DNA of 64,000 bases, from positions 18,325 to 82,324 of the forward strand of contig CANQWT010000001.1 of assembly GCA_947627635.1 (NCBI GenBank), in the 5' to 3' direction. This stretch comes from an uncultured Bacilli bacterium (GTDB taxonomy: Bacteria; Bacillota_I; Bacilli_A; RF39; UBA660). Under the pieces are notes generated by a model. That model was not told where the DNA came from, searched no databases, and saw nothing but the letters and a program-made list of their open reading frames with translations. Below are positions 2,624 to 64,000 of the stretch, one piece after another. Within the stretch, counting starts at the first letter, position 1. Each line of letters opens with the position of its first letter. Both the position numbers and the translations under genes were made by a program.

Positions 2624-3466
2624 ATGAACGGAATTATAGAATACAACGAAAAAATATTTGAAAACATTAAACACATTGACGAGTTTGGAAAGGAATTTTG
2701 GTATGCAAGAGAACTACAAAAAGTACTAGATTATAATGAGTGGCGAAAGTTTAAGGGAGTTATTGGAAAAGCTAAAGAAGCTTGCAAAAGTAGTAATATC
2801 AATACTTTGTACCATTTCATTGACACCGAAAAAATAATAAAAGTAGCTCAGGGTGCTCAACGAAAATTGGCAGATTATAAGCTATCACGATATGCCTGTT
2901 ACTTAATTGTTCAAAATGCTGACCCAAGGAAAGAAAGTGTGGCACTTGGACAAACCTATTTTGCGATACAAACAAGAAAACAAGAAATTAGTGAGAAAGA
3001 ATATAGTGAGCTTACTGAGGATGAAAAAAGATTTTATCAGAGAAATTTAACGAAGAAAGGTAATTTTTCTTTAAATCAAACTGCGAAAGATGCAGGAGTT
3101 AAGAACTTTGACCAATTTCATAATTTTGGATATAAAGGTTTATATAATGGTGAAACTGCAGATGATATTGCCAAGAGAAAAGGTCTAAGATATCGTGAAG
3201 ATATTTTGGATAATATGGGAAGTGAAGAATTGGCTGCGAATTTATTTCGAATTACTCAGACAGAAGCAAAGTTAAAAAGAGAAAATATAAAAACTGAAAA
3301 AAATGCAAATCATACACACTATACAATTGGAAGAAATATTAGAGAAGTTATTTTAAAAAATGGTGGGACAATGCCAGAAAACTTGCCAACCCCTAAGAAA
3401 AGTTTGAAAGAATTAGAAAAAGAAAAACGCGAGAAAATATTAAAAGAAAAAAGTTTTGAAAGTTAA
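2624..3466 (+). CDS. dinD: DNA damage-inducible protein D homolog
   Basis: Collinear with E. coli DinD from memory: WYARELQKVLDY vs WSARDLAPLLDY, LSRYACYLIVQNADP vs LSRYACYLVVQNGDP, GQTYFAIQTR, MGSEELAANLFRITQTEAKLKR vs MGSTELAANLFRATQTEEKLKR, GGTMPENLPTP vs GGTMPEELPTP. Confidence 0.8.
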   Translation: MNGIIEYNEKIFENIKHIDEFGKEFWYARELQKVLDYNEWRKFKGVIGKAKEACKSSNINTLYHFIDTEKIIKVAQGAQRKLADYKLSRYACYLIVQNADPRKESVALGQTYFAIQTRKQEISEKEYSELTEDEKRFYQRNLTKKGNFSLNQTAKDAGVKNFDQFHNFGYKGLYNGETADDIAKRKGLRYREDILDNMGSEELAANLFRITQTEAKLKRENIKTEKNANHTHYTIGRNIREVILKNGGTMPENLPTPKKSLKELEKEKREKILKEKSFES

Positions 3467-5010: not shown

Positions 5011-6222
5011 ATGGATGGCAAAGAATTTATAAAAGCAGTTGAAAATATTGTCAAAGAGAAAAATATCGATAAAGCCGTTGTCTTTGATGCAATGAAACTT
5101 GCACTATCATCTGCTTATAAGAAAAATACTGGAAACAAAAACAGTAATGTAAAAGTCGTTATTGATGAAGATACTGGAGATATTAAAGTCTATTCTTTCT
5201 TAACCGTTGTGGAAGATGAAAAGATGACGAAAGAAGAATACGAAGACTACTTATTTGAACATTATACAGATGAAGACGATGAGGAAGAAGAAGCTGAAGT
5301 AGAAAAACAAGAGGAAGAAGCAACAGAAGATGAAGCATTAGAAAAACAAGAAGAAAAGATTTCTTTCTTTAATAAAGATACAGAAATCAAACTTTCTGAT
5401 GCTCGTAAAATTGATAAGTCCTTAAATATTGGAGATACCATTGATACAGAAGTTACTCCAAAAGACTTTGGACGTGTCGCAACTTCAACAGCAAAACAAG
5501 TTGTCATTCAAAAAATTCGTGAGGCAGAACGAAATAGTATCATGGACGAATTTGGAGATAAACAAGATGAACTTTTAATTGGAACTGTAGCCTTAGAAGA
5601 TACAGATAACTACTTTATTGACCTTGGAAGATGTAATGGAATTTTACCAAAGAAAGACATTATTCCAGGTGAGAAAATAGAGATGGGTTCACAAATTAAA
5701 GTTTATGTAACTAAAGTTGATAACAATGGACGAAACTTACTCATTCTCTTATCAAGAAGACATTATGGTTTTGTAAAACGCTTATTTGAACTTGAAATTC
5801 CAGAACTTTCTGATGGTAGTGTTCTTCTATATAGTGTCGCAAGAGAAGCAGGAGTTCGTAGTAAAGTTGCTGTATATTCTGAAAACTCTAAAATTGACCC
5901 AATTGGTGCATGTATTGGTGAAAAGGGAAGCAGAATTGCCAACATTATCACAGAACTTCATGGTGAGAAAGTGGATATCATTCGTTATGACAAAGACCCT
6001 GCAGTCTTCATTGAGAATGCTCTTTCTCCAGCGAAGGATTTAACTGTTGCAATTACAGATGCTAAAAAACAAGAAGCATTAGTCATTGCCGATGGAGATA
6101 ATTTCTCACTTGCTATTGGAAAACGTGGATTAAATGCAAGATTAGCTTCTAAATTGACAGGTTATAAAATAGATATTAAAACAAGAGAACAAGCAGAAGA
6201 GTTAGGCATCAATTTAAGATAA
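5011..6222 (+). CDS. nusA: Transcription termination/antitermination factor NusA
   Basis: S1 and two KH domains (GACIGEKGSRIANI, AIGKRGLNARLAS). Sits between rimP and ylxR-infB. Contains an acidic insert DEDDEEEEAEVEKQEEEATEDEALEKQEEK after the N-terminal domain. Confidence 0.9.
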   Translation: MDGKEFIKAVENIVKEKNIDKAVVFDAMKLALSSAYKKNTGNKNSNVKVVIDEDTGDIKVYSFLTVVEDEKMTKEEYEDYLFEHYTDEDDEEEEAEVEKQEEEATEDEALEKQEEKISFFNKDTEIKLSDARKIDKSLNIGDTIDTEVTPKDFGRVATSTAKQVVIQKIREAERNSIMDEFGDKQDELLIGTVALEDTDNYFIDLGRCNGILPKKDIIPGEKIEMGSQIKVYVTKVDNNGRNLLILLSRRHYGFVKRLFELEIPELSDGSVLLYSVAREAGVRSKVAVYSENSKIDPIGACIGEKGSRIANIITELHGEKVDIIRYDKDPAVFIENALSPAKDLTVAITDAKKQEALVIADGDNFSLAIGKRGLNARLASKLTGYKIDIKTREQAEELGINLR

Positions 6223-6236
6223 GGGAGAGATATCTG

Positions 6237-6716
6237 TTGGAAACAAAAGACAAAAAAATACAAAAAGGGTACAAAGGGGCAGTTGATAGATTAGGTAATT
6301 TCTATCCATTTGAAAAAGCTGAAGTTCTAACAGCAAGTCATGATAAAAATTTTAGAAGGCTTACATTAGAAGAGTTAGGACAAGACCCAAGAATTGCCTT
6401 TTTAGAAGTCAAGGATACCCTTCCACATCCTGAATTTTATGATGTAAACTATCAAGACTATGATTTTAAAGCTCTAGCAATTGATTTTTTAGGTTTTTGT
6501 TCCTTTTCCATTTATGGAGAACAACTAGGAAATTATGCTGCAATTGAAGTACCTAATCCAAATATTTACGGTTATTCTATTACTAGAGAGCAACAAGAAA
6601 CATTATGCAAATTAGTAGAAATCAATCATTGTAGCTTGGAGTCTTTAAAACCAGTATTTCAAACCAAAACTTATGATGTGGTGCTTGGATATCAATATGA
6701 AAAAACAATAGATTAA
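6237..6716 (+). CDS. Hypothetical protein (159 aa, TTG start) inserted between nusA and ylxR
   Basis: ORF with no recognisable motif. This position normally holds ylxR or ylxQ directly. Confidence 0.4.
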   Translation: METKDKKIQKGYKGAVDRLGNFYPFEKAEVLTASHDKNFRRLTLEELGQDPRIAFLEVKDTLPHPEFYDVNYQDYDFKALAIDFLGFCSFSIYGEQLGNYAAIEVPNPNIYGYSITREQQETLCKLVEINHCSLESLKPVFQTKTYDVVLGYQYEKTID

Positions 6717-6730
6717 AAAGGAGGAAGAAG

Positions 6731-6994
6731 ATGAAAGAGAGAAAAATACCCATGAGAACTTGTGTTGTAACTGGGGAAAAATGTGAAAAGAAAGACCTTC
6801 TTCGAATTGTAAGAAATAAAGAGGGAGACGTCTTTGTAGATGAGACAGGAAAGCAAAATGGTAGAGGTGCCTATCTTAAAAAAGATATTGCTGTCCTTCA
6901 AAAGGCGATAAAGACGAAAGCTCTTAATAGAAAATTAGAGTGTACCATTCCAGAAGATGTGTACATGCAAATTGAAAAAATTATAACAAAATAA
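6731..6994 (+). CDS. ylxR: YlxR/DUF448 RNA-binding protein
   Basis: MRTCVVTGEKCEKKDLLRIV...GRGAYL is the canonical YlxR motif. Lies upstream of infB. Confidence 0.75.
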   Translation: MKERKIPMRTCVVTGEKCEKKDLLRIVRNKEGDVFVDETGKQNGRGAYLKKDIAVLQKAIKTKALNRKLECTIPEDVYMQIEKIITK

Positions 6995-19160: not shown

Positions 19161-19778
19161 ATGGCAAGAGTTAAAAATAGTGTGACAACAAAAGCACGTC
19201 ATAAAAAAGTATTAAAACAAGCCAAAGGATACTTTGGAAGTAAGCATAGACTTTATAAGTCAGCAAAAGAACAATTGATGCATTCAGGACAATATGCATT
19301 CCGTGACCGTAAACAAAAGAAAAGAGATTTTAGAAAATTATGGATTACACGTATCAATGCAGCATGTCGTGAAGAAGGAATTAGTTATTCAAGATTTATT
19401 GAAGGACTAACAAAAGCAGGAGTTGAAATCAATCGTAAGATGTTATCTGAAATCGCAATTAACGATAAAGAAAGATTTAAAGAATTAGTTCAACTTGCAA
19501 GAGATGGTAAGGCTGGAAAAGTATCACCATCAAAAGTAGAAATCAAAGAAGAAGTTACAATTAAGTCACAAAATAAGAAAGAAGAAGTAGAAAAGAAAAC
19601 AACTACTAAGAAAGAAACTGTAAAAGAAGATGCGAAGGAAGAAAAAAAATCTTCAAAGGAAGATGTTAAAGACTATAGTAAAATGACAGTTCAAGAACTT
19701 CGTGAAGTTGCAAAAGATAAGAATATCAAGGGTGCAAGTACAATGAAAAAAGCTGAACTTTTAGAGGCTTTAAAATAA
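19161..19778 (+). CDS. rplT: 50S ribosomal protein L20 with an ~85-aa C-terminal K/E-rich extension ending in a Rho_N-like motif
   Basis: [26 protein letters not shown] is canonical L20 through ~118 aa. It is followed by a low-complexity KE linker and then [31 protein letters not shown]. Confidence 0.9.
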
Positions 19779-19871: not shown

Positions 19872-20855
19872 ATGACAGTAGTATCAATGAATTATTTATT
19901 AGAAGCTGGTGTACATTTTGGACACCAAAAAAGAAGATGGAATCCAAAAATGAAGGAATACATCTATACAACAAGAGATGACATTTATATTATCGATTTA
20001 CAAAAAACAGTAAAGAAAATGGAAGAAGCATACGAAGCAATTAAGCAAATTGCTGAAGCAGGTGGAAAGTTCTTATTTGTAGGAACTAAAAAACAAGCTC
20101 AAGAAGCTGCTGAAGAAAATGCTGTACGTACAAATATGTACTTCGTAAACGAACGTTGGTTAGGTGGAACTTTAACAAACTTCAAAACAATTAAATCAAG
20201 AATTCGTAGAATGGAAGAAATCGAGAAAATGGAAGAAGATGGAACTTTTGATTTACTTCCAAAGAAAGAAGTTATTAAAATCCGTAAAGAATATGATAAA
20301 TTAAACAAGAATTTACGTGGAATTCGTGAAATGAAGAAAGCACCACAAGCTATGATTATTGTTGACCCACGTAAAGAAGAAATCGCTATTAAAGAAGCAA
20401 GAATTCTTGGAATTCCAGTATTTGGTATTGTTGATACCAACTGTGACCCTGATATGGTTGATTATGTAATTCCAGGAAATGATGATGCTGTCCGTGCTGT
20501 AAAATTGATGCTTGGTGCACTTACAAATGCAATTGCTGAAGTAAATGGAAATGAAATCATCGATTATGTTACAGAAGAAGATAAAAATAAAGATGCCAAA
20601 GCAAAAGAAGCAGAAACTTCTAAGGTGGAAGTAACAGAAGAGAAAAAGGAAGAACCAAAATCTACTCCTTCTAAAGAAGAGGCCGTAGAAGAAGTTCAAG
20701 AAGAACCTGTTCAAAAGGATGTAACTACTAAGGAAGATAAAAGTACAGATTTAGAAAGTCTTTCTTTACAAGACCTTAAAGCAAAAGCGAAAGAACAAGG
20801 AGTAAAAGGTTACTCTAAAATGAAAAAAGCAGAACTTATTGAAGTATTAAAGTAA
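19872..20855 (+). CDS. rpsB: 30S ribosomal protein S2 with a C-terminal K/E-rich extension ending in a Rho_N-like motif
   Basis: [18 protein letters not shown] is canonical S2. The C-terminus is [31 protein letters not shown]. Confidence 0.9.
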
Positions 20856-22371: not shown

Positions 22372-22437
22372 AGCTTTAAGAGGATAAAATAACGATAGGT
22401 TCATTAGAAAATATAAAATTAAAATAGGAGTTTGGTT

Positions 22438-24024
22438 ATGAGTATATATGAGGAACTAAAACACTTCAGTAAAGATTATATTTATGAACAATATATAAAA
22501 ATTGTAGAAGACCCTAAGTATTATGAAAACATTACGAAAATAAAAATGATAGATGCTATTTGTAAAATTTATAGTAATCCTGATAATATTATTGATATTT
22601 GTACGATAAAGGAATTAAAGTATTTGAAAATGGTTATTGATAATCTTTTTTCCCTTGCTGATGGACTTCAATCTAAAGAGAAGATAGATATTAAATATTT
22701 CAGTCATAAATATGATTGGGAAAGAAAAACTTTACAGAAAAAATTTTTACTAACGTCTGATTTTTATGGTGAAAGTACTATTCCTTTTGAAATAAAAGAT
22801 TCTGTTAAAAAGGCTTTAGAAAAAATCAAGTGGAGTAGTCAAAGAAAAATCAATGAATTAAATGAAATCTTAATAGGTTATTGTAAGATACAAGGTATAG
22901 TTTCTTTAGATGTTTTATGTGAATTTGCATCGAATATAACGGATTTAACTTCTGATGCTATATGTAATCATATATTTGATAATAAACTATTGAATTATTA
23001 TGTATATATTACAATGGTAAATAAGATAAAATCAGAAGAACAAGTTACTGTTGCTATTTTTCGTGAGAACTATGAGTTTGCTAGTACAATAGAAGATAAA
23101 AGAGATTTCATGGGATTAGTTGAAAATCTACAAATAACTGCTCAAACTTGTAAGAGTATATTCTATAATGATTTTGATATTTATAATCCTAAGGTCAAAA
23201 AACTTTTAACAGAAATTAAAAAGTTTCCTTCTTCTTGCGATATAGGACTAGAAGAAATTAGAGAATATGCTTTATTAAGTTGGTATAGAAAACCTTTAGA
23301 AGAGAAGATAAGCAATCTTTCGGAATTAGATGATGCGCACATCACTAAGTTTCTTAAGATATTAAATGAAGCTCTTGATGAAATGCCTTCTGGTGTTTTA
23401 GGTGGATACACACCTAATCAAGTTGGTGACATTAGAGACAGGCAAGTGCAACTGTTTAGGAAAAAAGATGCACAATATAAAAAACAAACAAATGCTCATT
23501 TGTCTATTCAAGATGCCAATCTTTTTAATAAAATCTATTTTGCTTTGTTAGAATATACGAACAAGAAATATAAAATCAATAAGAATTTTAAAATTTATAA
23601 ATGTAAGAAGGAAAATTCTGATGGACTAATGAACGTTATAGAGAAATTTTGGAAAGAAAAAGAAACAATTATTTTAGAATTTTGTAAGGTAAATCCTTAT
23701 AAATTTAGTCCAGAAGAGTTAGAATTTGCAAGCGAATTAAAAAAAGGAATGCGAAGAGAGTTTATTATTGCTAGATATGAACTAGATTACACTGCTTTTA
23801 TGGTAGATGATAGAATTTATATGGTCAAAGGACTACAGGGAAATATTGATAAGCTGATACCTTATGAATGTCTACCTTTTCCTGTGATGACAACAATTAT
23901 TCCATTTAGAGGAAACTTGATATATGATGGAATTATTCAAGGAATCAATAAGAAAATGAGTATTGAATTTGAAGAGATGGTTGAAAGAGAATACGATAAC
24001 TTAATGAAATATTATTATTTCTGA
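22438..24024 (+). CDS. Large hypothetical cytoplasmic protein (~529 aa)
   Basis: Long clean ORF. AGGAG RBS sits 7 nt before the ATG at 22438. No recognisable motif. Confidence 0.5.
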   Translation: MSIYEELKHFSKDYIYEQYIKIVEDPKYYENITKIKMIDAICKIYSNPDNIIDICTIKELKYLKMVIDNLFSLADGLQSKEKIDIKYFSHKYDWERKTLQKKFLLTSDFYGESTIPFEIKDSVKKALEKIKWSSQRKINELNEILIGYCKIQGIVSLDVLCEFASNITDLTSDAICNHIFDNKLLNYYVYITMVNKIKSEEQVTVAIFRENYEFASTIEDKRDFMGLVENLQITAQTCKSIFYNDFDIYNPKVKKLLTEIKKFPSSCDIGLEEIREYALLSWYRKPLEEKISNLSELDDAHITKFLKILNEALDEMPSGVLGGYTPNQVGDIRDRQVQLFRKKDAQYKKQTNAHLSIQDANLFNKIYFALLEYTNKKYKINKNFKIYKCKKENSDGLMNVIEKFWKEKETIILEFCKVNPYKFSPEELEFASELKKGMRREFIIARYELDYTAFMVDDRIYMVKGLQGNIDKLIPYECLPFPVMTTIIPFRGNLIYDGIIQGINKKMSIEFEEMVEREYDNLMKYYYF

Positions 24025-24149
24025 AATGTTACATAGATATTAAAGCTTAAAGTAGAAATAGATGGGTTAGAAGATATATTAAAATTAGACTATGATATTA
24101 TAGAAGCTTGAAAATGAAATGGTTATAAAAGTGTCAATTTGACAAAATT

Positions 24150-24800
24150 ACTTGAATATGATATAATGTGAAGCGTAATGGAAATGGCACACTATTCTAG
24201 TCAATTCCTTTATTACGAAGACGGGATTAAACCACCGTTAAAGAGCACATCTGTGAAACTTCTGGTGTTTGCTTCTTACGCCCAGTTTGGGGTGGATGCT
24301 GGAAGGTATGGATAATGGGTAGTCTATAATGGCATATAGATGAATCCCACTATCTTGGAGACCTAAACTTGTGAGATACCTATACGTGCTAACTGATGGA
24401 TATCTTACGACTTAGGTAGAACCTACTATGTGGCGAAAGTTATGAGTAGCGTAGCTTGTCTTGAGTGGAAAAGTTGGGATTTATGAGCTGACCTAATGAT
24501 TTGGCCAAATCGATTAGATAAACTGCATAATGAAATCTTTTCTGCAAAAAAGAATTAGTAATAAAGATTGGTGAGGAAATCTCCTAGAGTGATGTCGTTT
24601 GGGATTGCAGTGGGTACTAAGTGGTGATCAAGCCATACTTTAAGTATTCGACTTTCGTAAGGGGGAACCGCAGAATTGGTAACGATTCTGTAAAGAAGAG
24701 GGAAATCCTGCTTGACCTAAGGCCCAAAGTTTACCAAAGGATAGCCAACCATGATATTGAAATTAAAGTAACTTCGGTTGCTTTTTTTGTTTTTGTAAAT
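24150..24800 (+). ncRNA. Candidate large structured ncRNA (OLE-like?)
   Basis: About 650 nt with no credible ORF and clearly elevated GC compared with flanks (GGGGTGGATGCTGGAAGG..., GGGGGAACCGCAGAATTGG...). Immediately upstream, on the same strand, of a ~21 kDa 4-TM protein with a DxxxD motif. This is the arrangement described for OLE RNA and oapA. Confidence 0.4.
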
Positions 24801-24882
24801 GCATTATTTTATGGCATCAAAAGTCAAAAGCAAATTTACTTTTTCAAAGACTTTCGTTATAATAGAAAACATGAGGTGTCTT

Positions 24883-25488
24883 ATGAACAGAGAAGAAAGA
24901 AGTAAAATTAAAAGTGAGTTAAGAAATTTAGAAGTACAAACTAGAAGAAAAGAGAAGAAAAAGAAAAGTTTAGTAGACTGGAAATGGATAGGAACTATAT
25001 TTTTTGTAGCTTTTGTTCTATCAATGTCTCTTTCATTTGTCTCTGAAACAACCATCAAAGAAGCAAGCCTTCCTATTAGTATTTTGATTACGGTCTTCTT
25101 TATTTGCTTAGGAATTTTATTTGATATTATTGGAGTTTCAGTAACAGCAAGTGATGAAGCTATTTTTCATTCAATGAGTGCGAGAAAAGTAAGAGGAGCA
25201 AAAGTTGCTGTCACATTTAAGAAAAATGCGGATAAAGTATCAAGTTTTTGTTGTGATGTCATTGGTGATATTTGTGGAATTATTTCTGGTGCTTCAGGTG
25301 TTACCATTACAGCACTTTTAACTCAAACTTTTGATTTCCAACTTCTTCCAACAACTTTAGTAGTGACAGGAATGATTTCCGCCCTAACTATTGGTGGAAA
25401 AGCTTTAGGAAAGAGTTTTGCTATCAACAAAAGTAATATTATTCTATATGAGTTTGCAAAAGTGATATCCATAGTTTATAAAGGATAA
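24883..25488 (+). CDS. Small polytopic membrane protein with DxxxD motif (OapA-like candidate)
   Basis: GAGGTG RBS 6 nt before the ATG at 24883. About 201 aa with four predicted TM segments and a conserved-looking CCDVIGDICG (DxxxD). The track ORF from 24799 runs back into the noncoding block. Confidence 0.4.
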   Translation: MNREERSKIKSELRNLEVQTRRKEKKKKSLVDWKWIGTIFFVAFVLSMSLSFVSETTIKEASLPISILITVFFICLGILFDIIGVSVTASDEAIFHSMSARKVRGAKVAVTFKKNADKVSSFCCDVIGDICGIISGASGVTITALLTQTFDFQLLPTTLVVTGMISALTIGGKALGKSFAINKSNIILYEFAKVISIVYKG

Positions 25489-25499
25489 GGAGGATTAAA

Positions 25500-27095
25500 A
25501 TGATACAAGTTGACCACGTTACTTTAACATTTGGGAAAAGAACTTTATTTGAAGATGTCAATTTAAAATTTATGAATGGAGCTTGTTATGGCTTAATTGG
25601 CGCAAATGGAGCAGGCAAATCAACTTTCTTAAAGTTGTTGACTAAAGAGTTAGAAACAACACATGGGGAGATTACCATTGGAAAAAATGAGCGCGTTTCT
25701 TTCTTAAAACAAGACCATTATGCCTATGATGAAATGCGTGTTTTAGATATTGTGTTAATGGGAAATGATGCTTTGTGGAAAGTCATTGATGAAAAGAATA
25801 AGCTTTATAGTCAAAGTGAGTTTAGTGATGATGATTACATGAAAATGGCTGATTTAGAAGCAGAATTTCAAGACTTAGATGGCTATAATGCAGAACCTGA
25901 TGCAGCTCTTCTTTTATCTAATCTTGGAATTGATATTGGCTATCACTCTATGTTCATGAAAGAAATTCCTGTCAAGTTAAGAGTAAAAGTTCTTCTTGCT
26001 CAAGCACTTTTTCAAAATCCTGATATCCTACTTTTGGATGAACCTACAAACAGTTTAGATATGGCAGCAATTAAATGGCTAGAAGATTTTTTAATGGATT
26101 ATCCTAATACAGTCATTGTAGTATCTCATGACCGACACTTTTTAAATAAAGTTTGTACTCATATTGTTGATATTGATTTTGGAAAAATGAAAATATATTC
26201 TGGTAACTATGATTTTTGGTATCAGTCAAGAGAATTTGCTCTTAAACAGATGAAAGAACAAAACCGCAAGAAAGAAGAAAAAATCAAAGAACTTCAAGCT
26301 TTTATTGACCGTTTTTCAGCAAATGCTTCTAAGTCAAAGCAAGCAACATCAAGAAAGAAAATCTTAGAAAAAATAGAGTTGGACGAAATTGTTCCTTCCT
26401 CAAGAAAATATCCTTTTATTGATTTTAAAATGGAACGACCACGAGGAAATGATATTTTAGAAGTTAAAAACTTATGTAAAGAAGTTGATGGAGAAAAGCT
26501 TTTAAATAAAGTTTCCTTTACTATTCAAAAAGGAGATAAAATTGCCCTTCTTGGGGAAAATGACTTAGCTAAGACAACACTTTTAAATCTTCTTGCAGGG
26601 AAAGAAAAGTATGATAAAGGAGAAATCCATTATGGGAAAACGATTTTTCCTACTTATCTTCCACAAGATAATAGTTCTTACTTTCAAGAAGATTTACCAC
26701 TTCTTACTTGGTTATCAAAGTATTATGAGGGAAATGACTTACAATACTTACGTTCCTTCTTAGGAAGAATGCTATTTTCAAATGAAGAAGTATTTAAGAA
26801 AACTTCGGTTTTATCAGGAGGAGAAAAAGTAAGAGCGATGCTTAGTAAATGTATGTTAGAACTTCCTAATTTCTTACTTTTAGATGAACCTACAAACCAT
26901 TTAGACCTTGAAAGTATTACCTCTTTAAACAAAGGACTTTCTAATTTTCAAGGAGAGATGATTTTCACAAGTCGTGATTTAACTTTAAACGAAACACTTG
27001 CCAACAGAATTATTGAAATTCAAGAGGATGGTACAATTTTGGACAAACGATGTAGTTTTGATGAGTATTTTGCTTGGAAAGAGACCCGAAAATAG
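25500..27095 (+). CDS. ABC-F family ATPase (tandem ABC domains, no TMD)
   Basis: Two Walker A (GANGAGKST; GENDLAKTT), two LSGGE signature motifs, and a charged inter-domain linker. Confidence 0.85.
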   Translation: MIQVDHVTLTFGKRTLFEDVNLKFMNGACYGLIGANGAGKSTFLKLLTKELETTHGEITIGKNERVSFLKQDHYAYDEMRVLDIVLMGNDALWKVIDEKNKLYSQSEFSDDDYMKMADLEAEFQDLDGYNAEPDAALLLSNLGIDIGYHSMFMKEIPVKLRVKVLLAQALFQNPDILLLDEPTNSLDMAAIKWLEDFLMDYPNTVIVVSHDRHFLNKVCTHIVDIDFGKMKIYSGNYDFWYQSREFALKQMKEQNRKKEEKIKELQAFIDRFSANASKSKQATSRKKILEKIELDEIVPSSRKYPFIDFKMERPRGNDILEVKNLCKEVDGEKLLNKVSFTIQKGDKIALLGENDLAKTTLLNLLAGKEKYDKGEIHYGKTIFPTYLPQDNSSYFQEDLPLLTWLSKYYEGNDLQYLRSFLGRMLFSNEEVFKKTSVLSGGEKVRAMLSKCMLELPNFLLLDEPTNHLDLESITSLNKGLSNFQGEMIFTSRDLTLNETLANRIIEIQEDGTILDKRCSFDEYFAWKETRK

Positions 27096-27184
27096 GCTGT
27101 TTTTGTGAAAAATTGAAGAAATTTACGTACAAAGGCTTAAAAAAATTAGAAATATGTTATAATGAGTATAGGGAGGAAAAGATT

Positions 27185-27751
27185 ATGAGTAATAAACAAA
27201 AAGAGAATTTAAAAACTGCGATTATAGTAGTTTTAGTAATGGTCATTGTTTTTGGAGCTAGCTTTTTTGTTTCTGAATTGAGTGGAAAGGCAAGCACTTA
27301 TAGTAAGACTAGTTCATCTTCTAATGAAGCAGGAGAAGATACATCCTATGATGATATCGACTATGATGAGGGAGCAAGCATTCCTGAAAGTGAACAAAAG
27401 GACTTAACTGAAATCAGTGTCAGCAAATTTATTAAGTTAAAGAAAGCTAGTGAAAAATCTCTTGTCATTATTACAAGAGATGGTTGTTCATGGTGTGAAC
27501 GTTATTTACCAATTATGAAAAATATAGCTTATCTATATAAGAACTTAACAATTTACAATATCAATTTAGCAGAACTTAGTGATGATGAATCAACAGATTT
27601 AATGACTTCAGATGATTTCTTCACAGAAGAAGATTGGGGAACTCCACTAACCCTTGTTGTTCAAAATAATAAAATTGTAGATACCATCAATGGCTTTACT
27701 TCTAAAGACCTTACAATTGAATTCTTAAAAGACCAAGGACTTATTCAGTAA
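27185..27751 (+). CDS. Membrane-anchored thioredoxin-fold protein (CxxC)
   Basis: GGGAGG RBS. N-terminal TM segment and CSWC active-site-like motif in ITRDGCSWCERYLP. Confidence 0.5.
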   Translation: MSNKQKENLKTAIIVVLVMVIVFGASFFVSELSGKASTYSKTSSSSNEAGEDTSYDDIDYDEGASIPESEQKDLTEISVSKFIKLKKASEKSLVIITRDGCSWCERYLPIMKNIAYLYKNLTIYNINLAELSDDESTDLMTSDDFFTEEDWGTPLTLVVQNNKIVDTINGFTSKDLTIEFLKDQGLIQ

Positions 27752-42414: not shown

Positions 42415-42789
42415 TTATTTTCCTTCACGTTTATAAGTATCATATAATTCTTTAAAACGATTAAAGTGAACAATTTCACGTTGTCTTAACCAGAGAAGTG
42501 GTCCTAAAATGTCAGGGTCATCTGTTAAATCGATTAGATTTTCATAGACAGCTCTTGCTTTTTGTTCGGCTGCCATATCTTCAGAAAGGTCGGCAAAGAA
42601 ATCTCCTGTTGTTGAGACATAAGTAATTGTAAAAGGAACACTATCTGCATCAGTTGGATAAAGTGCTTTTCCATGTTCTGTGTAGTGCGCATCAAGTCCT
42701 GCTTTTTTCATTTCCTCTGGAGTTGCATCTTTAGTCAGTTGATAGAGCATGGTAGAAATAATTTCCACATGAGCAAGTTCTTCTGAATA
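42415..42789 (-). pseudogene. cotJC: 3' half of spore-coat Mn-catalase-like gene cotJC, separated from its 5' half by the prophage insertion
   Basis: EELAHVEIISTMLYQLTKDATPEEMKKAGL...AEQKARAVYENLIDLTDDPDILGPLLWLRQREIVHFNRF aligns with the C-terminal ~115 aa of B. subtilis CotJC (EEFAHLEMIATMVYKLTKDATPEQL...AEEKARATYQWLIDISDDPDL...LREREIVH). The frame stays open upstream but homology stops near 42787-42790, and there is no start or RBS. Confidence 0.7.
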
Positions 42790-42884
42790 ACAACGATTGA
42801 AATAAATGTTAGTGATACTTTTATTTATGTCTAACGTAAATGTTCTAAAGAATGAGAACGTTTACGATTAAAGTATAAACAGTG

Positions 42885-44693
42885 CTAGAATTTTGGGTGT
42901 ATTACAATGGAAAAATTATTCTCGTAACCACGTCCGCCCTTATCTTTTTTATATTCTATATAAGATATAACAGACTTTAAAAGTTTGTTTTTCTTTTCTA
43001 TAGAATTAACTTTATTGTATGAATTTATTACTTTTTCTATTTTAGGTAATAACTTTTCTATACTATTTTTATTTAATTTAGATTGGTATTTATTTAATTC
43101 TTTTTCTGTATTTTTGATTCTATCTTTAATTACTTTTGTACGTTCTGTAAATTCTTTAGATGTATATATTCCTTGTTCTACTAATTCGTATGCTTTTTCT
43201 AGTTGTTTGTTATATTTCTCTAAATCTTTACTTAAAGAAATAGCCATAATATTATCTTCTTCCTCAGCTGGAATATATGTACTTAATAATTCTTTTTGAG
43301 TAGTAGCGTACTCTTTTAATCCGTTTATTACTTCTTTTTCAACGATAGAAAGATTAGAACCTATATTAGTACAATGAGCTTTAGAACATATTAAAGTGTC
43401 TTCGTGAGGGCTTATAATATTTTCTTCAAAAGTCATAATTGATTTATCAAACTCTGTTGTTGTTATATTTAATAAGTTTTTTAATTGTTCCCATTTATCA
43501 GCATAAGGAATAGTAAATTTATCTATAGTAGCTGAGAACCAATGATCTACGACACTTTTACTTATATGTAGTTCGTTAGCTATATCACGTAAACTATATT
43601 CTCCTTTATGTTCTCTTAAACATAGTCTCAATTTATCTTTATCGACTTCATACTTGCGTCTTAACTTTGGCTCTTGACCTTTAATTTCGTAATATGGTCG
43701 TCTTTGCATAGTTCTTCCGCAATCAGCACATTTTATCAAAGTAGCTAACGGATTCTGTAAATCAGTACCGTGTTTTGTACTTGTATTTCTAGGCTCTATT
43801 TTTTGTACTATATCAAACAAAGTTTGATCTATAATAGCTTCGTGTAATCCCTCGACTATAATAAGATCTTCTTTATTTCCTCTTTTACGAGTTTTTATAA
43901 TCTGACCGTTAACAAGACTTTTTTGTTGTTTATTATTATTCCACCTTATTTTCCCTAGATAGATTGGATTAGATAACATTCCTTTAATTGTAGACGGAGT
44001 CCATACATCAGACGTTTTAGGCTTAAAATCAGTTGTATTAAGCCAATTACATATTATATTATGTCCCATTCCGTCAGCTCTTTTTTGAAATATCTGTTTA
44101 ACAATTTCCGCTTCTTCTGGTATTATTTCTAAGGTAAAGCCTTTAGCGTATTTTATTTTTACTTTTTTATAGCCAAAAGGTGGCTCAGAAGCACAGTATT
44201 TTCCCTCTAGTACATTTGCAAGTCTTCCACGTTGCATACGCCTATTTATGGTTTTATATTCACGTCTAGACATAAATAATCCAAACTCGAAGTATTCTTC
44301 GTCTTCTTCACTATTAGGATCGTAGATTTTATTAAGAGTTATTATTTTAGTATTAGAGTATTTAAAAGCTTGAGCTACAACTCCTTGATCTTTAGCGTCT
44401 CCACGTGTAAGACGTTCTACTTCTACAACTAATATTCCGTCTACTTCGCCAGTTTCAATATTTTTAAGAATCTTTTGTATTTCTGGACGCTCTTGTATAG
44501 ATTCTCCAGATACAACCTCTTTATATATTTTACGAATTTTTATTCCTAGTTGTTTAGCTCTATCTTTTAAGAATTTTTCGTGTTGCTTTAACGTATCAAA
44601 TTTTTTAATTCGTTCCAATTCCATATCGGCACGAGATTTTCTTAAATAAACATCATATATTCCGTTTGGATCTAACGTAACAGTATTATACAT
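42885..44693 (-). CDS. Large serine recombinase (phage integrase, SprA/SpoIVCA-like class)
   Basis: N-terminal resolvase-type catalytic domain (YLRKSRAD...ILVVEVERLTRGDAKD), recombinase domain, Cys pair CADCGRTM zinc ribbon, and long coiled-coil C-terminus. Lies ~95 nt from the cotJC junction. Confidence 0.8.
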   Translation of the reverse strand: MYNTVTLDPNGIYDVYLRKSRADMELERIKKFDTLKQHEKFLKDRAKQLGIKIRKIYKEVVSGESIQERPEIQKILKNIETGEVDGILVVEVERLTRGDAKDQGVVAQAFKYSNTKIITLNKIYDPNSEEDEEYFEFGLFMSRREYKTINRRMQRGRLANVLEGKYCASEPPFGYKKVKIKYAKGFTLEIIPEEAEIVKQIFQKRADGMGHNIICNWLNTTDFKPKTSDVWTPSTIKGMLSNPIYLGKIRWNNNKQQKSLVNGQIIKTRKRGNKEDLIIVEGLHEAIIDQTLFDIVQKIEPRNTSTKHGTDLQNPLATLIKCADCGRTMQRRPYYEIKGQEPKLRRKYEVDKDKLRLCLREHKGEYSLRDIANELHISKSVVDHWFSATIDKFTIPYADKWEQLKNLLNITTTEFDKSIMTFEENIISPHEDTLICSKAHCTNIGSNLSIVEKEVINGLKEYATTQKELLSTYIPAEEEDNIMAISLSKDLEKYNKQLEKAYELVEQGIYTSKEFTERTKVIKDRIKNTEKELNKYQSKLNKNSIEKLLPKIEKVINSYNKVNSIEKKNKLLKSVISYIEYKKDKGGRGYENNFSIVIHPKF

Positions 44694-44694
44694 C

Positions 44695-44965
44695 TTACAC
44701 CTCCTCACTTTCTAATATTTTATCTACTTCTTTTTCATATTCGGCTATTTTTGATTTATCATAATTTTTTAAATGTCCTAGTTTATAATGTAATATTTCG
44801 TGTCTAAAATGACTTTTCTTTTTGTACGTCAGAAATAGAATCGTTAATTACTATATAAATACTATCGTCTAATTCTAAAATAAAGGCTCTAATTTTATTA
44901 GGTAACTTCATTATTTTTAATTTCAAACCGTATTTTTCGGCAATTTTCGACATTCTTTCGTACAT
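44695..44965 (-). pseudogene. ImmA/IrrE-family HEXXH metalloprotease (anti-repressor protease), apparently frameshifted at an A5 run
   Basis: N-terminal frame: MYERMSKIAEKYGLKLKIMKLPNKIRAFILELDDSIYIVINDSISDVQKEKSF*. The downstream +1 frame continues KKSHFRHEILHYKLGHL... (HEILH). Deleting one A from GTACAAAAAGAAAAGTC restores ...SDVQKKSHFRHEILH. RBS GGAGGTA precedes the start. Confidence 0.5.
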
Positions 44966-57636: not shown

Positions 57637-58118
57637 AGGAAATCATAGCATATTATTTAGATTGTAATAATTATAGTGAAACAGCTCGTAAATTCGGAAT
57701 GTCTGATACTGGTGTAAGAAAACTAATAAATAGGGAATCTGATAAAGAAAGTACGAGATTGTTAGAGGAGAAAAAAAATAATAATACTAAAGAAGTAATA
57801 CAAGATATGGACGACCGTAAGGAAACAGTTAAGAGATTACTCGGAAAGTTATTAGACGCTATAGAAGATAAAATAGACAATGTTGATATGTTTACTTCTG
57901 TTCGTGATATAGCTATGGCTTACGGTACGATAGTAGATAAAGAGTTTAAACGTCAAGAGTTAGAGTTAAAGAGAAAAGAAATAGCTTTAATGGAGAAAGA
58001 GTTAGAGGGCGATTCAAGTTTAAACAGTTCTATTATTCAAGCTATTAAAGGACAAATGACTTCTATATGGGAGGGCGAAGACGGAGATGTTAAAGAGCCT
58101 AAAAAAGAAACTAAGTAA
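57606..58118 (+). CDS. Terminase small subunit (HTH)
   Basis: Position immediately 5' of terL. HTH ETARKFGMSDTGVRKLIN. Confidence 0.5.
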   Translation: MAKKKTDKEIKEIIAYYLDCNNYSETARKFGMSDTGVRKLINRESDKESTRLLEEKKNNNTKEVIQDMDDRKETVKRLLGKLLDAIEDKIDNVDMFTSVRDIAMAYGTIVDKEFKRQELELKRKEIALMEKELEGDSSLNSSIIQAIKGQMTSIWEGEDGDVKEPKKETK

Positions 58119-59430
58119 GCCATTTATCTGGAGCCCTCTTTCAAAGAAACAGTTAAAAGTAATGTCGTGGTGGTGTGAGGGTAGTCCTTATAAGAATTAT
58201 GACGGAATAATAGCTGACGGTGCTGTTAGATCTGGAAAGACTATATCAATGTCTCCCTCATTCGTATTATGGGCTATGACAAACTTTGACGGATTAGATT
58301 TTGCTTTATGTGGTAAGACAATAGGTTCTTTAAGACGTAATGTTATTAACACGTTAAAAAAACAGATACTTACTTTAGGTTATCAATACGAAGAAAGACG
58401 TACAGATAACTTGATTATTATTTATAAAGGCGATAAGTATAACAATTTTTACTTATTCGGTGGTAAAGACGAATCTTCACAAGATTTAATACAAGGTATG
58501 ACGCTAGCTGGCGTCTTTTTTGACGAAGTAGCACTTATGCCTTATTCATTCGTAGATCAAGCTATGGCTCGTTGTTCTGTAGAGGGTGCTAAATATTGGT
58601 TTAACTGTAATCCAAAGAATCCGAATCACTGGTTTAAAACTGATTTTATAGATAAAGCCAAAGAGAAAAGATTTTTATATTTACATTTTACTATGGACGA
58701 TAATCTTACTCTATCAGAGAAAGTTAAGTTACGTTATAAGAGAATGTTCGCTGGAGTATTCTATAAACGTAATGTAGAGGGATTATGGGTAACAGCTGAG
58801 GGACGTATATATACGACCTTTGACGAGAGTAGAGTTATTAGCTATAAAGATTTTATAATAAATTATTCTAAAGATATTGTAGGAGCGTATATTGGTGTCG
58901 ACTTTGGAGGAAATAAATCGGCTACGTCTTTTACATTAACTTTAATTACTAGAGGTTTTAAACACGTAATAATAGCTGACGAGTGGTATCACAAAGAAGA
59001 ATTAACTCCTAAACAGTTAGAAGAAAAGTTTGTAGAGTTTGTAACATCTTCTTTTAGTAAATATCCTCAGTTACACGATATATATTGCGATAGTGCGGAG
59101 CAATTACTTATTAACGGTTTAAAGATAGCACTTAGGAAAGCTAAATATACAGATAGTAAGGGAATTGTTAGAGCATACCCTATAATAATTCATAATGCTA
59201 TTAAAGGAGAAATTATAGATCGTATTAGATTTACTACAGCTATGTTCGGACAAGATAGATTATGGGTTGTTAAAGAGAAATGTCCTAACACTATATCAGC
59301 ATTTGATAATGCTGTATGGGACGAGGACGAATTAGACGACGTTAGATTAGACGACGGTAATTATAATATCGACTCGTTAGATAGTTTTGAGTATTCGATA
59401 GAAAAACAAATGAAATTGATTTTAAGATAG
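58087..59430 (+). CDS. Terminase large subunit (PBSX/SPP1-type)
   Basis: Walker A GAVRSGKTIS and Walker B-like AGVFFDEVA. C-terminal nuclease region with acidic residues (DSAEQ..., D-rich end). Confidence 0.8.
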   Translation: MLKSLKKKLSKPFIWSPLSKKQLKVMSWWCEGSPYKNYDGIIADGAVRSGKTISMSPSFVLWAMTNFDGLDFALCGKTIGSLRRNVINTLKKQILTLGYQYEERRTDNLIIIYKGDKYNNFYLFGGKDESSQDLIQGMTLAGVFFDEVALMPYSFVDQAMARCSVEGAKYWFNCNPKNPNHWFKTDFIDKAKEKRFLYLHFTMDDNLTLSEKVKLRYKRMFAGVFYKRNVEGLWVTAEGRIYTTFDESRVISYKDFIINYSKDIVGAYIGVDFGGNKSATSFTLTLITRGFKHVIIADEWYHKEELTPKQLEEKFVEFVTSSFSKYPQLHDIYCDSAEQLLINGLKIALRKAKYTDSKGIVRAYPIIIHNAIKGEIIDRIRFTTAMFGQDRLWVVKEKCPNTISAFDNAVWDEDELDDVRLDDGNYNIDSLDSFEYSIEKQMKLILR

Positions 59431-60791: not shown

Positions 60792-62345
60792 ATGCAAGAC
60801 GATAAGAAATTACGAGAAATCTACGAGAATATAGAAGCTGATTTACTTCGTAATATCGCCAGTCGACTTGATATTGACGAGATAGACGGAGGTACAGTTG
60901 AGTGGCACACCAGAAAATTAAACGAATTAGGTATGTTAAGTTCTGAAAATATCAAATTATTATCTAAATACTCTGGAAAAACAGAAAAAGAAATAAAAAG
61001 TATGTTAAAAAAGTCTGGGTATGAAAATATAGAGGAGAAAGCTTTTAAAGAAGCGTATAAAATAGGAACTTTAAGCGAACAACCTATAGCTTTAATGAAA
61101 TCAGAATCGTTAAAGAATATTCTTAATACATCTGTTGCTAACTCTATTGATTCATTTAATTTAGTAAATACTAAAGCGTTAGAAAGTGCTAACGAAGAAT
61201 ATTTAAAAATAATAAATCAAGTATACTTAGAAACAGCACAGGGAATATATGACTACAGTACATCTTTAAGAAAAGCTACTACTCGTTTAGCTGAAAAGGG
61301 AATAACTGGAGCTACTTATATGCGTACTGACGGAACTCATATAAGAAGAACTTTAGAAAGTGCTGTACGTATGCAAATATTAACATCTACAAATCAATGT
61401 ATGACTAAAATGCAAGAGGAAAGAGCTAAAGAATGGGGCTCTAATTTAGTAGAAGTTTCTTCTCATATAGGAGCAAGACCTAGCCACGCTGAATGGCAAG
61501 GAAAAATTTATATGTTAGAGGGCTCTAGTGATAAATACCCTAACTTTTATCAAGCGACTGGTTATGGTACAGTAACAGGTTTAGGTGGAGTTAATTGTAG
61601 ACATACATTCTACCCTTATTTAGAGGGAGTTAGTGAAAAAACATATAAACACTATAACCTTAACGAAAATAAGGAACAATACGAAAAAGAACAACAACAA
61701 CGTCTTTTAGAAAGAAAAATTAGGGTTGAAAAACAAAAGATAATTGTAGCCGAAGAAACTGGCGATAAGTTAATGCTAGAAAAAGCTAGTATGAAATTAA
61801 AAGAACGTAGAGACGACTTAAAGAAATTCTTAGAAGAAAATAATCTTTTGGAAGATACTTCGAGAGAGTTTAAATACGGATTCAATCGTTCTATGTCTCA
61901 AAAAGCCTTAAATACAAGTCGTAGCGTTGAAAATAAAGCCAATATGATGTATAATTTAGGTAGTACGGAGAATAATGTTAAAGCATACATTAAAGACGCT
62001 CCTATTAAGGAAACAATTAGTACAACTTATGATTTAGAGAAATACAGAGATAGTAAATGGGAAAAACACGATCCAAATAGTAAAGGCTATGAAACTAACG
62101 CTAGTCAAGTAACTATCTCAAAACAAGAAACAATAGATTTAATAAAAAAATATGCTGGTAAAGGTGCGTTGTTAAGAAATCCTAACGGAACTTGGAATAA
62201 ACAAGAACTAATTCATTCTGATACTGTTGTTGGTAAAGTATTAGGCGTTAATAATAAGTGGGTAGAAACTAAAACATTTAAAATACATTACTCTAAACGA
62301 GGAGTACATATTGTACCTAGTTTAAGAGATACAAAGGAGAAGTAA
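60792..62345 (+). CDS. Minor head protein (Phage_Mu_F/SPP1 gp7-like) with extra ~190-aa C-terminal domain
   Basis: Mu F core: TRLAEKGITGATYMRTDGTHIRRTLESAVRMQILT...EVSSHIGARPSHAEWQGKIY. Confidence 0.65.
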   Translation: MQDDKKLREIYENIEADLLRNIASRLDIDEIDGGTVEWHTRKLNELGMLSSENIKLLSKYSGKTEKEIKSMLKKSGYENIEEKAFKEAYKIGTLSEQPIALMKSESLKNILNTSVANSIDSFNLVNTKALESANEEYLKIINQVYLETAQGIYDYSTSLRKATTRLAEKGITGATYMRTDGTHIRRTLESAVRMQILTSTNQCMTKMQEERAKEWGSNLVEVSSHIGARPSHAEWQGKIYMLEGSSDKYPNFYQATGYGTVTGLGGVNCRHTFYPYLEGVSEKTYKHYNLNENKEQYEKEQQQRLLERKIRVEKQKIIVAEETGDKLMLEKASMKLKERRDDLKKFLEENNLLEDTSREFKYGFNRSMSQKALNTSRSVENKANMMYNLGSTENNVKAYIKDAPIKETISTTYDLEKYRDSKWEKHDPNSKGYETNASQVTISKQETIDLIKKYAGKGALLRNPNGTWNKQELIHSDTVVGKVLGVNNKWVETKTFKIHYSKRGVHIVPSLRDTKEK

Positions 62346-63301: not shown

Positions 63302-64000
63302 ATGGCAATTAAATTAGAAGACGCACAAAAATTGTCTCAAAGTAAATTAACTAACAAAATTGTTGACGAATTTAGAAAATGTCCTTTATTAGACGCTATT
63401 CCATTCGACAACACTGTAAAACCTCAAGGAGGTAAAACTCTAGCTTACGTGTTTAATAGAATTACTACACAACCAAAAGCTGGAGCTCGTAAAATTAACG
63501 GAGAATATACTTCTCAAGAAACAGTTACTACACCAGCAACTGTATTATTAAAAGTTATGGGTGGTTCTTATGAATTAGACCGTGTTATCGCTAACGAAGA
63601 AAAACAAGTTGTAGATCACGTACAATTTCAAGCTACTCAAAAAGCTAAAGCTACAAGAGCTTATTTCCTAGATCAATTCATTAACGGAGATGTTGGAACT
63701 GACGCTGACGGATTCGACGGAATTGATAAGGCTGTTAAAGGAACTGTAACAGAATACAATACAGAAGAAACTATAGATTTATCTAGTTCTGACGCTATTG
63801 ATTCTAATTATAAAAAGTTCTTATATTTAATTCGTAGAATGACAGCTAAAATGGTTGAAAAACCTACTCATTATTTAATGAATAGTGATATGTACGCTGT
63901 ATTCCAAACTATCGCTGATAGAGTTCCAAATATTCATTATGATAAAGACGCTTTCGGAGAAGAAATTATCAGATATGGTAGAGCTGTATTAGTTGATATG
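63302..64000 (+). CDS. Major capsid protein, 5' part (runs off window)
   Basis: GGAGGAAAAAAT RBS, ATG at 63302, open to the window end (not in the ORF track because no stop was reached). Position after scaffold. Confidence 0.5.
   Translation, partial: MAIKLEDAQKLSQSKLTNKIVDEFRKCPLLDAIPFDNTVKPQGGKTLAYVFNRITTQPKAGARKINGEYTSQETVTTPATVLLKVMGGSYELDRVIANEEKQVVDHVQFQATQKAKATRAYFLDQFINGDVGTDADGFDGIDKAVKGTVTEYNTEETIDLSSSDAIDSNYKKFLYLIRRMTAKMVEKPTHYLMNSDMYAVFQTIADRVPNIHYDKDAFGEEIIRYGRAVLVDM

Follow-up and report, generated by a model that had tools for sequence, protein, structure and literature searches.

A 64,000-nucleotide (nt) stretch of DNA from an uncultured Bacilli bacterium (assembly GCA_947627635.1, contig CANQWT010000001.1, positions 18,325 to 82,324 of the forward strand; hereafter the window) contains a GC-rich block that is, by its sequence, a full-length OLE (ornate, large, extremophilic) RNA, a family that has been described before. 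The block is followed on the same strand by oapA, the gene for the membrane protein partner of OLE RNA. We regard it as nearly certain that positions 24139-25488 of the window are a standard ole-oapA locus. An earlier model-made reading of the DNA from its letters (the sequence-only reading) had interpreted this region as a candidate OLE-like ribonucleoprotein (RNP) locus. That interpretation stands, with the correction that the RNA is OLE and not "OLE-like", and a first-stage reader was able to recognise an OLE locus from raw sequence.

The entire window was scanned on both strands with all 4227 Rfam families at their gathering thresholds. The only match in the 64 kb was OLE RNA (RF01071), which scored 354.5 bits against a gathering score of 50 and covered model positions 1-616 of 616, with an E value of 1.6e-100 that excludes chance as the source of the match. 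The Infernal search with the Rfam OLE model proposed in the sequence-only reading was therefore strongly positive over the full length. The ROOL, GOLLD, HEARO and raiA models, which had been proposed alongside it, gave nothing above the gathering score in the window, and neither did riboswitches, tRNAs or rRNAs. When the Rfam consensus structure was projected onto the window, 150 of the 159 model pairs were kept, of which 136 were canonical. Departures from the model were small and comprised a missing hairpin at model positions 424-435, a shortened P13 and, within the hairpin at 24362-24416, an 11-nt insertion in the distal loop. All 50 aligned relatives likewise had no hairpin at model positions 424-435. 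Helix numbering differs between papers; names are used here for P13 and P14.1, whose loops anchor them, and the other helices are given by coordinates.

The window RNA shares with known OLE RNAs (RF01071; the Halalkalibacterium halodurans model and the Clostridium acetobutylicum cryo-electron microscopy structure) the full-length covariance-model match and the same helices with covariation. It also shares their invariant blocks, such as UAUUCUAGUC, the GCCCA loop, AAUGGCAU, GGAGACC, CCUAGA, GGGAAAUCC and GACCUAAG, as well as an oapA gene directly downstream on the same strand and a host in the Bacillota. About 25% near-invariant nucleotides are typical of OLE in the literature.

For comparison, 80 loci were fetched from one-genome-per-species collections using an alignment of diverse OapA homologues. 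The best match in the OapA search was a metagenome-assembled genome (MAG) from mouse gut labelled "uncultured Bacilli bacterium" (77% protein identity). Other loci came from gut MAGs of goat, rabbit, ruminant, chicken and human that were labelled Bacilli, Erysipelotrichaceae or Bacillota, and the more distant loci belonged to Oscillospiraceae and other Clostridia. An nhmmer search with the window RNA as query found an OLE homologue on the same strand in nearly all loci with enough upstream sequence, usually ending 40-100 nt before oapA. In the great majority of the 84 loci OLE and oapA shared a strand, with OLE directly upstream, and Rfam confirmed OLE in ten relatives' loci with scores of 360-410 bits.

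The comparative alignment for covariation, also suggested in the sequence-only reading, gave strong support. We tested the Rfam structure on a MAFFT alignment of 51 RNAs, with controls in which pairing partners were slid by 1-3 columns and with shuffles. The fraction of cells paired was 81.3%, compared with 42-46% for slid partners and a mean of 70.6% for shuffles. Changes on both sides were seen in 103 of 150 pairs (slid, 53-65; shuffles, mean 82.4), and the covariation score was 0.367 (slid, 0.09-0.16; shuffles, mean 0.172). None of the 500 shuffles reached the observed values. The long hairpin with the GCCCA loop (helix 2) had 20 pairs and was 90.9% paired, with compensatory changes in 10 of the pairs and an invariant loop, while P14.1 (helix 19) was 88.9% paired with five compensatory pairs. 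Furthermore, a long-range terminal pairing of UGGC with GCCA, absent from the Rfam consensus structure, closes the RNA. It covaries in the 51 homologues, where UGGC occurs with GCCA, UGGU with ACCA (8) and UGGA with UCCA (1); this pairing was judged by inspecting extracted segments, as many rows of the MAFFT alignment are shifted by one position at the 3' end.

Some features of the compared loci are recorded here as separate observations. A block CCUAUACG...CUGAUGGA at window positions 24379-24400 (alignment columns 224-265), in the distal part of the hairpin at 24362-24416, is conserved in most of the 51 Bacilli OLE RNAs and deleted in about a dozen, and at this place the Rfam consensus has only weakly conserved bases. 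Three loci (L016, L084 and L038, with the oapA homologue at 6001, 6001 and 5498, respectively) encode OapA proteins with 53-55% identity, but in the 5-6 kb preceding the oapA homologue no OLE match reached the Rfam gathering score; either ole lies elsewhere in these genomes or oapA occurs there without ole. In five others (L028, L036, L045, L053 and L029), OLE and oapA are separated by other DNA over 0.6 kb to more than 5 kb, where 40-100 nt is usual, indicating that ole and oapA can be uncoupled. In addition, nine MAGs titled "uncultured Muribaculaceae" or "Bacteroidaceae" carry a typical Bacillota ole-oapA (L013, L038, L041, L047, L050, L053, L056, L071 and L036). These bins are probably mislabelled or contaminated, and a similar remark has been made on 24 non-Bacillota OLE hits (PMC11332333).

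The protein encoded downstream of the RNA is a true OapA, as judged from its sequence, its conserved motif and its modelled fold. The oapA start codon lies 118 nt beyond the end of the Rfam match. In a BLASTP comparison, the 201-amino-acid (aa) product was 37% identical over 164 aa (E 5e-26) to published OapA (Supplementary Table 4, PMC12286853, Kretsch et al. 2025; alignment, FCCDVIGDICGIISG to FCNDVIGDISGIVSG). The DVIGD motif pointed out in the sequence-only reading is present at residues 125-129 and is the single DxxxD match in the protein. Across 66 diverse homologues, the residues D81, D125, G128, G136, K173 and K177 do not vary, and conservation of D129 is at least 90%. An AlphaFold2 model built from an alignment of 65 sequences, with the published OapA sequence left out, had a mean predicted local distance difference test (pLDDT) score of 91.1 and showed four long membrane-type helices (33-60, 63-89, 116-150 and 154-182). 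The sequence-only reading had described a ~21-kDa protein with four transmembrane helices. The model agrees with the four helices, but the mass is ~22 kDa, and by Kyte-Doolittle hydropathy (threshold 1.6) only the first two segments pass.

The Pfam CNNM profile scored OapA below threshold (16.2 bits against a cutoff of 28.4), and a sub-threshold CNNM score was likewise described for OapA by Fernando & Breaker 2024 (PMC11332333). A conserved proline characteristic of CNNM domains is typically absent from OapA proteins. The best structural match of the model in the PDB was the CNNM/CorB Mg2+ transporter 7M1U, which is the published best match for H. halodurans OapA too. NCBIfam, a library without an OapA model, gave noise matches to Mycoplasma families only, and a PDB sequence search returned nothing significant, the one listed match (enoyl-CoA hydratase, E 0.84) being noise. 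The window protein thus resembles published OapA (BH2780) in its 37% identity, DxxxD motif, four long helices and sub-threshold CNNM score. However, it differs in having a longer, highly charged N-terminus (12 K/R and 6 D/E in residues 1-33). Unlike the CNNM/CorB/CorC/MpfA Mg2+ transporters, it has no CBS or CorC_HlyC domains, and it has four helices where CorB/MpfA has three.

A perfect sigma-70/sigma-A-type promoter with an extended -10 TG is predicted to drive ole (Table 1). It was the only 12/12 match in a scan of positions 23900-27300, and it abuts the start of the Rfam match, with a predicted transcription start at ~24173-24176. At the equivalent position in the 51 homologous loci, 41 had a match of at least 10/12 and 20 had 12/12; random 74-nt windows from the same loci reached at least 10/12 in 2.4% and 12/12 in 0.08% of cases. 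Just beyond the RNA, a hairpin followed by a U-run resembles an intrinsic terminator and probably acts as one. The consensus scan missed it because its stem has just two G-C pairs, and a comparable hairpin with a U-run occurs between OLE and oapA in 31 of the 51 loci. A second, weaker promoter-like site precedes oapA in the window; most relatives have a shorter OLE-oapA spacer that leaves no room for such a site. An ole gene with its own near-consensus promoter and terminator, as suggested for this clade, fits the known high abundance of the RNA and its high ratio to oapA mRNA. In H. halodurans, by contrast, transcription yields a polycistronic RNA that includes ole (PMC12265935).

The layout of the region largely matched the description in the sequence-only reading. 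The non-coding gap runs from the stop of a 530-aa open reading frame (ORF) at 24024 to the oapA ATG, and, as that reading had stated for 24025-24882, it contains no credible gene. The gap ORFs are mechanical: one of 45 aa (24178-24315), one of 94 aa (24621-24905) and a third that extends the downstream gene in the upstream direction. All three sit within the OLE RNA or its terminator region. The block had been called markedly richer in GC than its AT-rich flanks, and in 300-nt windows its GC content was indeed 0.37-0.40 over 24150-24749, compared with 0.25-0.31 in the flanks. The block exists, but its size had been overestimated at ~650 nt: the structured element is 597 nt long in the Rfam match and ~620 nt long when counted from the predicted start as far as the terminator U-run. 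The GAGGTG ribosome-binding site (RBS) with its same-strand protein and the ABC-F ATPase gene placed next in that reading were recovered as well, the latter beginning 11 nt past the oapA stop.

Table 1 Features of the ole-oapA locus and the adjoining gene (window coordinates)
Feature	Position	Strand	Basis
Predicted ole promoter: TTGACA, 17-nt spacer with TG, TATAAT	24139..24167	+	12/12 consensus match
OLE RNA gene, full length	24168..24764	+	Rfam RF01071 match
Long-range terminal pairing closing the RNA, 5' half UGGC	24185..24188	+	partner GCCA at 24743-24746
Long, highly conserved hairpin with GCCCA loop	24259..24305	+	Rfam model positions 93-139
Shortened P13 hairpin AUACU-UUA-AGUAU	24635..24647	+	Rfam alignment shows deletions
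P14.1 hairpin, GUAA (GNRA) tetraloop retained	24670..24691	+	structure projected from the Rfam alignment
Intrinsic-terminator-like element: 8-bp stem AAAGUAAC/GUUGCUUU, UUCG loop, then UUUUGUUUUUG	24765..24795	+	fold
Second, weaker promoter-like site ahead of oapA: TTTACT, 17 nt, TATAAT	24835..24863	+	10/12, consensus match alone
RBS of oapA, GAGGTG	24873..24878	+	read from the sequence, four bases before the ATG
oapA, 201-aa membrane protein, OLE RNA partner	24883..25488	+	homology to published OapA
DxxxD motif codons (D125 V I G D129)	25255..25269	+	aligns with NDVIGD of published OapA
ABC-F family ATPase gene	25500..27095	+	Pfam ABC_tran twice and ABC_tran_Xtn

Studies of H. halodurans and C. 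acetobutylicum have established that OapA dimers bind OLE RNA (2:1) and tether it to the membrane, and that OLE RNA homodimerises (PMC12265935, PMC7936274, PMC9723947, PMC12054373, PMC12286853). The same five papers report that in H. halodurans OapA, OapB and OapC are essential RNA-binding partners, with bS21 as a further biologically relevant partner, and that loss of the OLE complex impairs growth in the cold, in short-chain alcohols, in excess Mg2+ and on poor carbon sources. In the window, strong transcription from the consensus promoter would yield an RNA of ~600-620 nt that would fold into the conserved OLE architecture, and the weak intrinsic terminator would set most of its 3' ends. 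Expression of oapA, and probably of the abutting ABC-F gene, would come from read-through and/or from the weaker promoter-like site. By analogy with the model species, a dimer of the four-helix, CNNM/CorB-like OapA would hold the OLE RNA at the membrane, where the RNA would be a homodimer.

A different explanation is that the block acts in cis, as a long structured 5' leader controlling oapA and the ABC-F gene, and is not a stand-alone noncoding RNA. Its position on the same strand directly upstream of oapA fits a leader, as does the spacer to oapA of only about 40-60 nt in relatives, which implies that read-through from the OLE promoter must often account for oapA expression. However, the block matches, over its full length, a family whose members work in trans as abundant RNP components (PMC12265935), and between it and oapA there is a terminator-like hairpin. 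In L028, L036, L045 and L053, OLE is 0.6-3.7 kb away from oapA, and other DNA fills the interval. We therefore consider a cis-acting leader very improbable.

Several points weigh against the reading of this region as a standard ole-oapA locus. At 354 bits the window RNA scores somewhat under the ten relatives confirmed by Rfam. P13 has neither the GNRA tetraloop nor the single-nucleotide bulge beside it that, in H. halodurans, form the primary binding site of OapB (PMC7936274). A tblastn search with the published sequence of OapC (YbxF), which binds OLE RNA at a K-turn built from the sequences on either side of P5, did not find OapC in the window or in the 84 loci. When ten small ORFs outside the prophage region of the window, most of them without a Pfam match, were compared with the PDB in a search for oapB, only YlxR (1G2R) matched. 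The absence of oapB and oapC from the window says little, since these genes are normally unlinked to ole. We infer the promoter, the terminator, the RNA ends and RNP assembly in this organism from the DNA, and the mechanism carried over by analogy stops at a membrane-tethered RNP and stress adaptation, as it does in the model species.

The P13 GNRA site is typical of full-length OLE and is not needed for family membership. A GNRA loop folds at P13 in 41 of the 51 homologues and in none of the sequences of the window, L005, L010, L015, L017 and L030. The same truncation in five other species points to a tolerated variant. Without the GNRA tetraloop that OapB recognises, docking of OapB at P13 has, by analogy with H. 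halodurans, probably been lost or altered in this organism. P14.1, which keeps its GNRA tetraloop in the window, corresponds to the weak secondary OapB site (PMC7936274). Many "variant 1" OLE RNAs have lost the P13 site, and their genomes are often without OapB and OapC (PMC11332333). The window RNA resembles these in coming from an uncultured gut Bacillota lineage and in missing the OapB-binding nucleotides at the P13 end. It probably differs from the two variant classes, of which short or absent P7-P9 stems are the defining feature, in that its alignment spans the whole Rfam model with the middle helices (24423-24555) retained. The ~50 aligned Bacilli OLE sequences show that loss of the OapB site at P13 recurs in RNAs that otherwise keep their structure.

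The truncated P13 with its missing OapB site, the 14 non-canonical pairs and the slightly lower Rfam score are also what would be expected of a decaying, non-functional remnant of OLE. However, the window RNA agrees with the other 50 sequences at all 153 columns that are invariant among them and at 89 of 98 columns that are at least 90% conserved, and some of its departures from near-invariant columns are compensatory (e.g., 24599/24737 and 24633/24710). The consensus promoter is intact, as is the oapA frame with its conserved motif, and the P13 truncation recurs in five other species. Judged from this pattern of conservation, the OLE RNA here is functional and under purifying selection, not a remnant, and decay is a shade less credible than even the cis-acting leader. 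The last possibility, another large RNA (ROOL, GOLLD, HEARO or raiA) or a coding gene such as the 94-aa ORF, is suggested by size and GC content and nothing further, and we give it practically no weight: no other Rfam family reached its gathering score in the window, by which this possibility is already refuted, and the ORFs are short, overlap the conserved base-paired RNA and show homologue indels that are not multiples of three.

The ABC-F gene downstream of oapA had PRK15064 ABC-F as its best NCBIfam match (645 bits, under the cutoff of 762). Of the nearest Bacilli loci, ~16 have a homologue (64-73% identity) at 0-3.5 kb downstream of oapA, often with a bPH-domain gene and a gene for a 420-aa protein after it, whereas the more distant loci have no such homologue. 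Since the linkage is confined to the closest Bacilli, it fits inherited gene order in one clade and not a general functional link. From its position, the ABC-F gene is probably co-transcribed with oapA, and we treat it as context and not as a demonstrated part of the system. This clade-limited linkage is a modestly useful by-product of the analysis. We speculate, with low confidence, that the subgroup without the P13 site (the window, L005, L010, L015, L017 and L030) may have dispensed with OapB docking at P13 and, at the same time, that the ole-oapA-ABC-F order of the wider clade may reflect functional coupling of the membrane-bound OLE RNP to the ABC-F translation factor. Such coupling, if true, would give OLE a second connection to translation besides the published one through bS21.

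Upstream of the locus, the window carries translation and sporulation genes, including rimP, nusA, infB, pheST, rpsT, gpr, spoIIP, infC, rplT, rpsB and tsf. The window differs from known OLE loci in that its neighbourhood consists of translation genes and an ABC-F gene, in addition to the shortened P13 without GNRA loop and bulge. Isoprenoid, DNA-repair and nusB-type genes, which are common near ole (PMC12265935, PMC12054373), were not found among the ORFs scanned here. The 530-aa protein encoded immediately upstream (22432-24024) had no Pfam or NCBIfam match. It was considered as a part of the system and rejected, as no homologue was found in any of the 84 loci.

Gpr, SpoIIP, a YlbD coat protein and FemAB are encoded in the window, and the host is an uncultured gut Bacillota bacterium, probably of the class Bacilli. 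By analogy with its relatives of gut origin, it may be anaerobic. With gpr and spoIIP encoded, it is not an RF39-type genome stripped of sporulation genes. A survey of GTDB with Infernal counted 2,822 OLE genes in Bacillota; apart from Negativicutes, every major class was represented, and gut-MAG lineages were explicitly considered (PMC11332333). The sequence-only reading had suggested that OLE in this DNA would extend the known distribution. It does not, since the survey already covers such Bacillota lineages and the nearest relatives are gut Bacilli MAGs with ole-oapA. The locus is a textbook ole-oapA pair, an already known and ordinary member of a well-surveyed family. OLE is among the largest conserved bacterial noncoding RNAs of obscure biochemistry, and each confirmed locus has some comparative value. 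However, this locus adds little, as the curated model scores it at seven times the gathering score and the survey covers such lineages.

Several observations elsewhere in the window are independent of the ole-oapA locus. In the nusA-infB interval, a 159-aa ORF without a family match (6237-6716) is followed by YlxR (6731-6994; PDB 1G2R-like), and there is no YlxQ (L7Ae-type) gene at the position that it holds in Bacillus. The ribosomal proteins L20 and S2 (window 19161-19778 and 19872-20855) each have a C-terminal extension of ~35 aa that matches Rho_N, with that of L20 also matching HeH; an appendage of the Rho_N type is unusual on two neighbouring ribosomal protein genes. A Bro-N domain protein (window 2624-3466) lies amid a housekeeping cluster of penicillin-binding protein, YlbD coat protein, rsmD, rimP and nusA. 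Bro-N is a family typical of phages and mobile elements.

From 42415-44708 and on to position 64000, the window contains a prophage-like region that is apparently inserted in a CotJC-like manganese-catalase gene. The fragment at 42415-42768 (minus strand) matches only positions 70-189 of the Mn_catalase profile, its homology starting abruptly at ~42780, and it is abutted by a large serine recombinase gene (42885-44708, minus strand). Further on, the region encodes DUF1351, a large terminase subunit (58087-59430) and a minor capsid protein. The insertion resembles the intervening elements that split sporulation genes, and its other end lies beyond the window. At window 60792-62345, a phage minor capsid protein 2 (Phage_min_cap2) has an Ntox50 toxin domain at its C-terminus.

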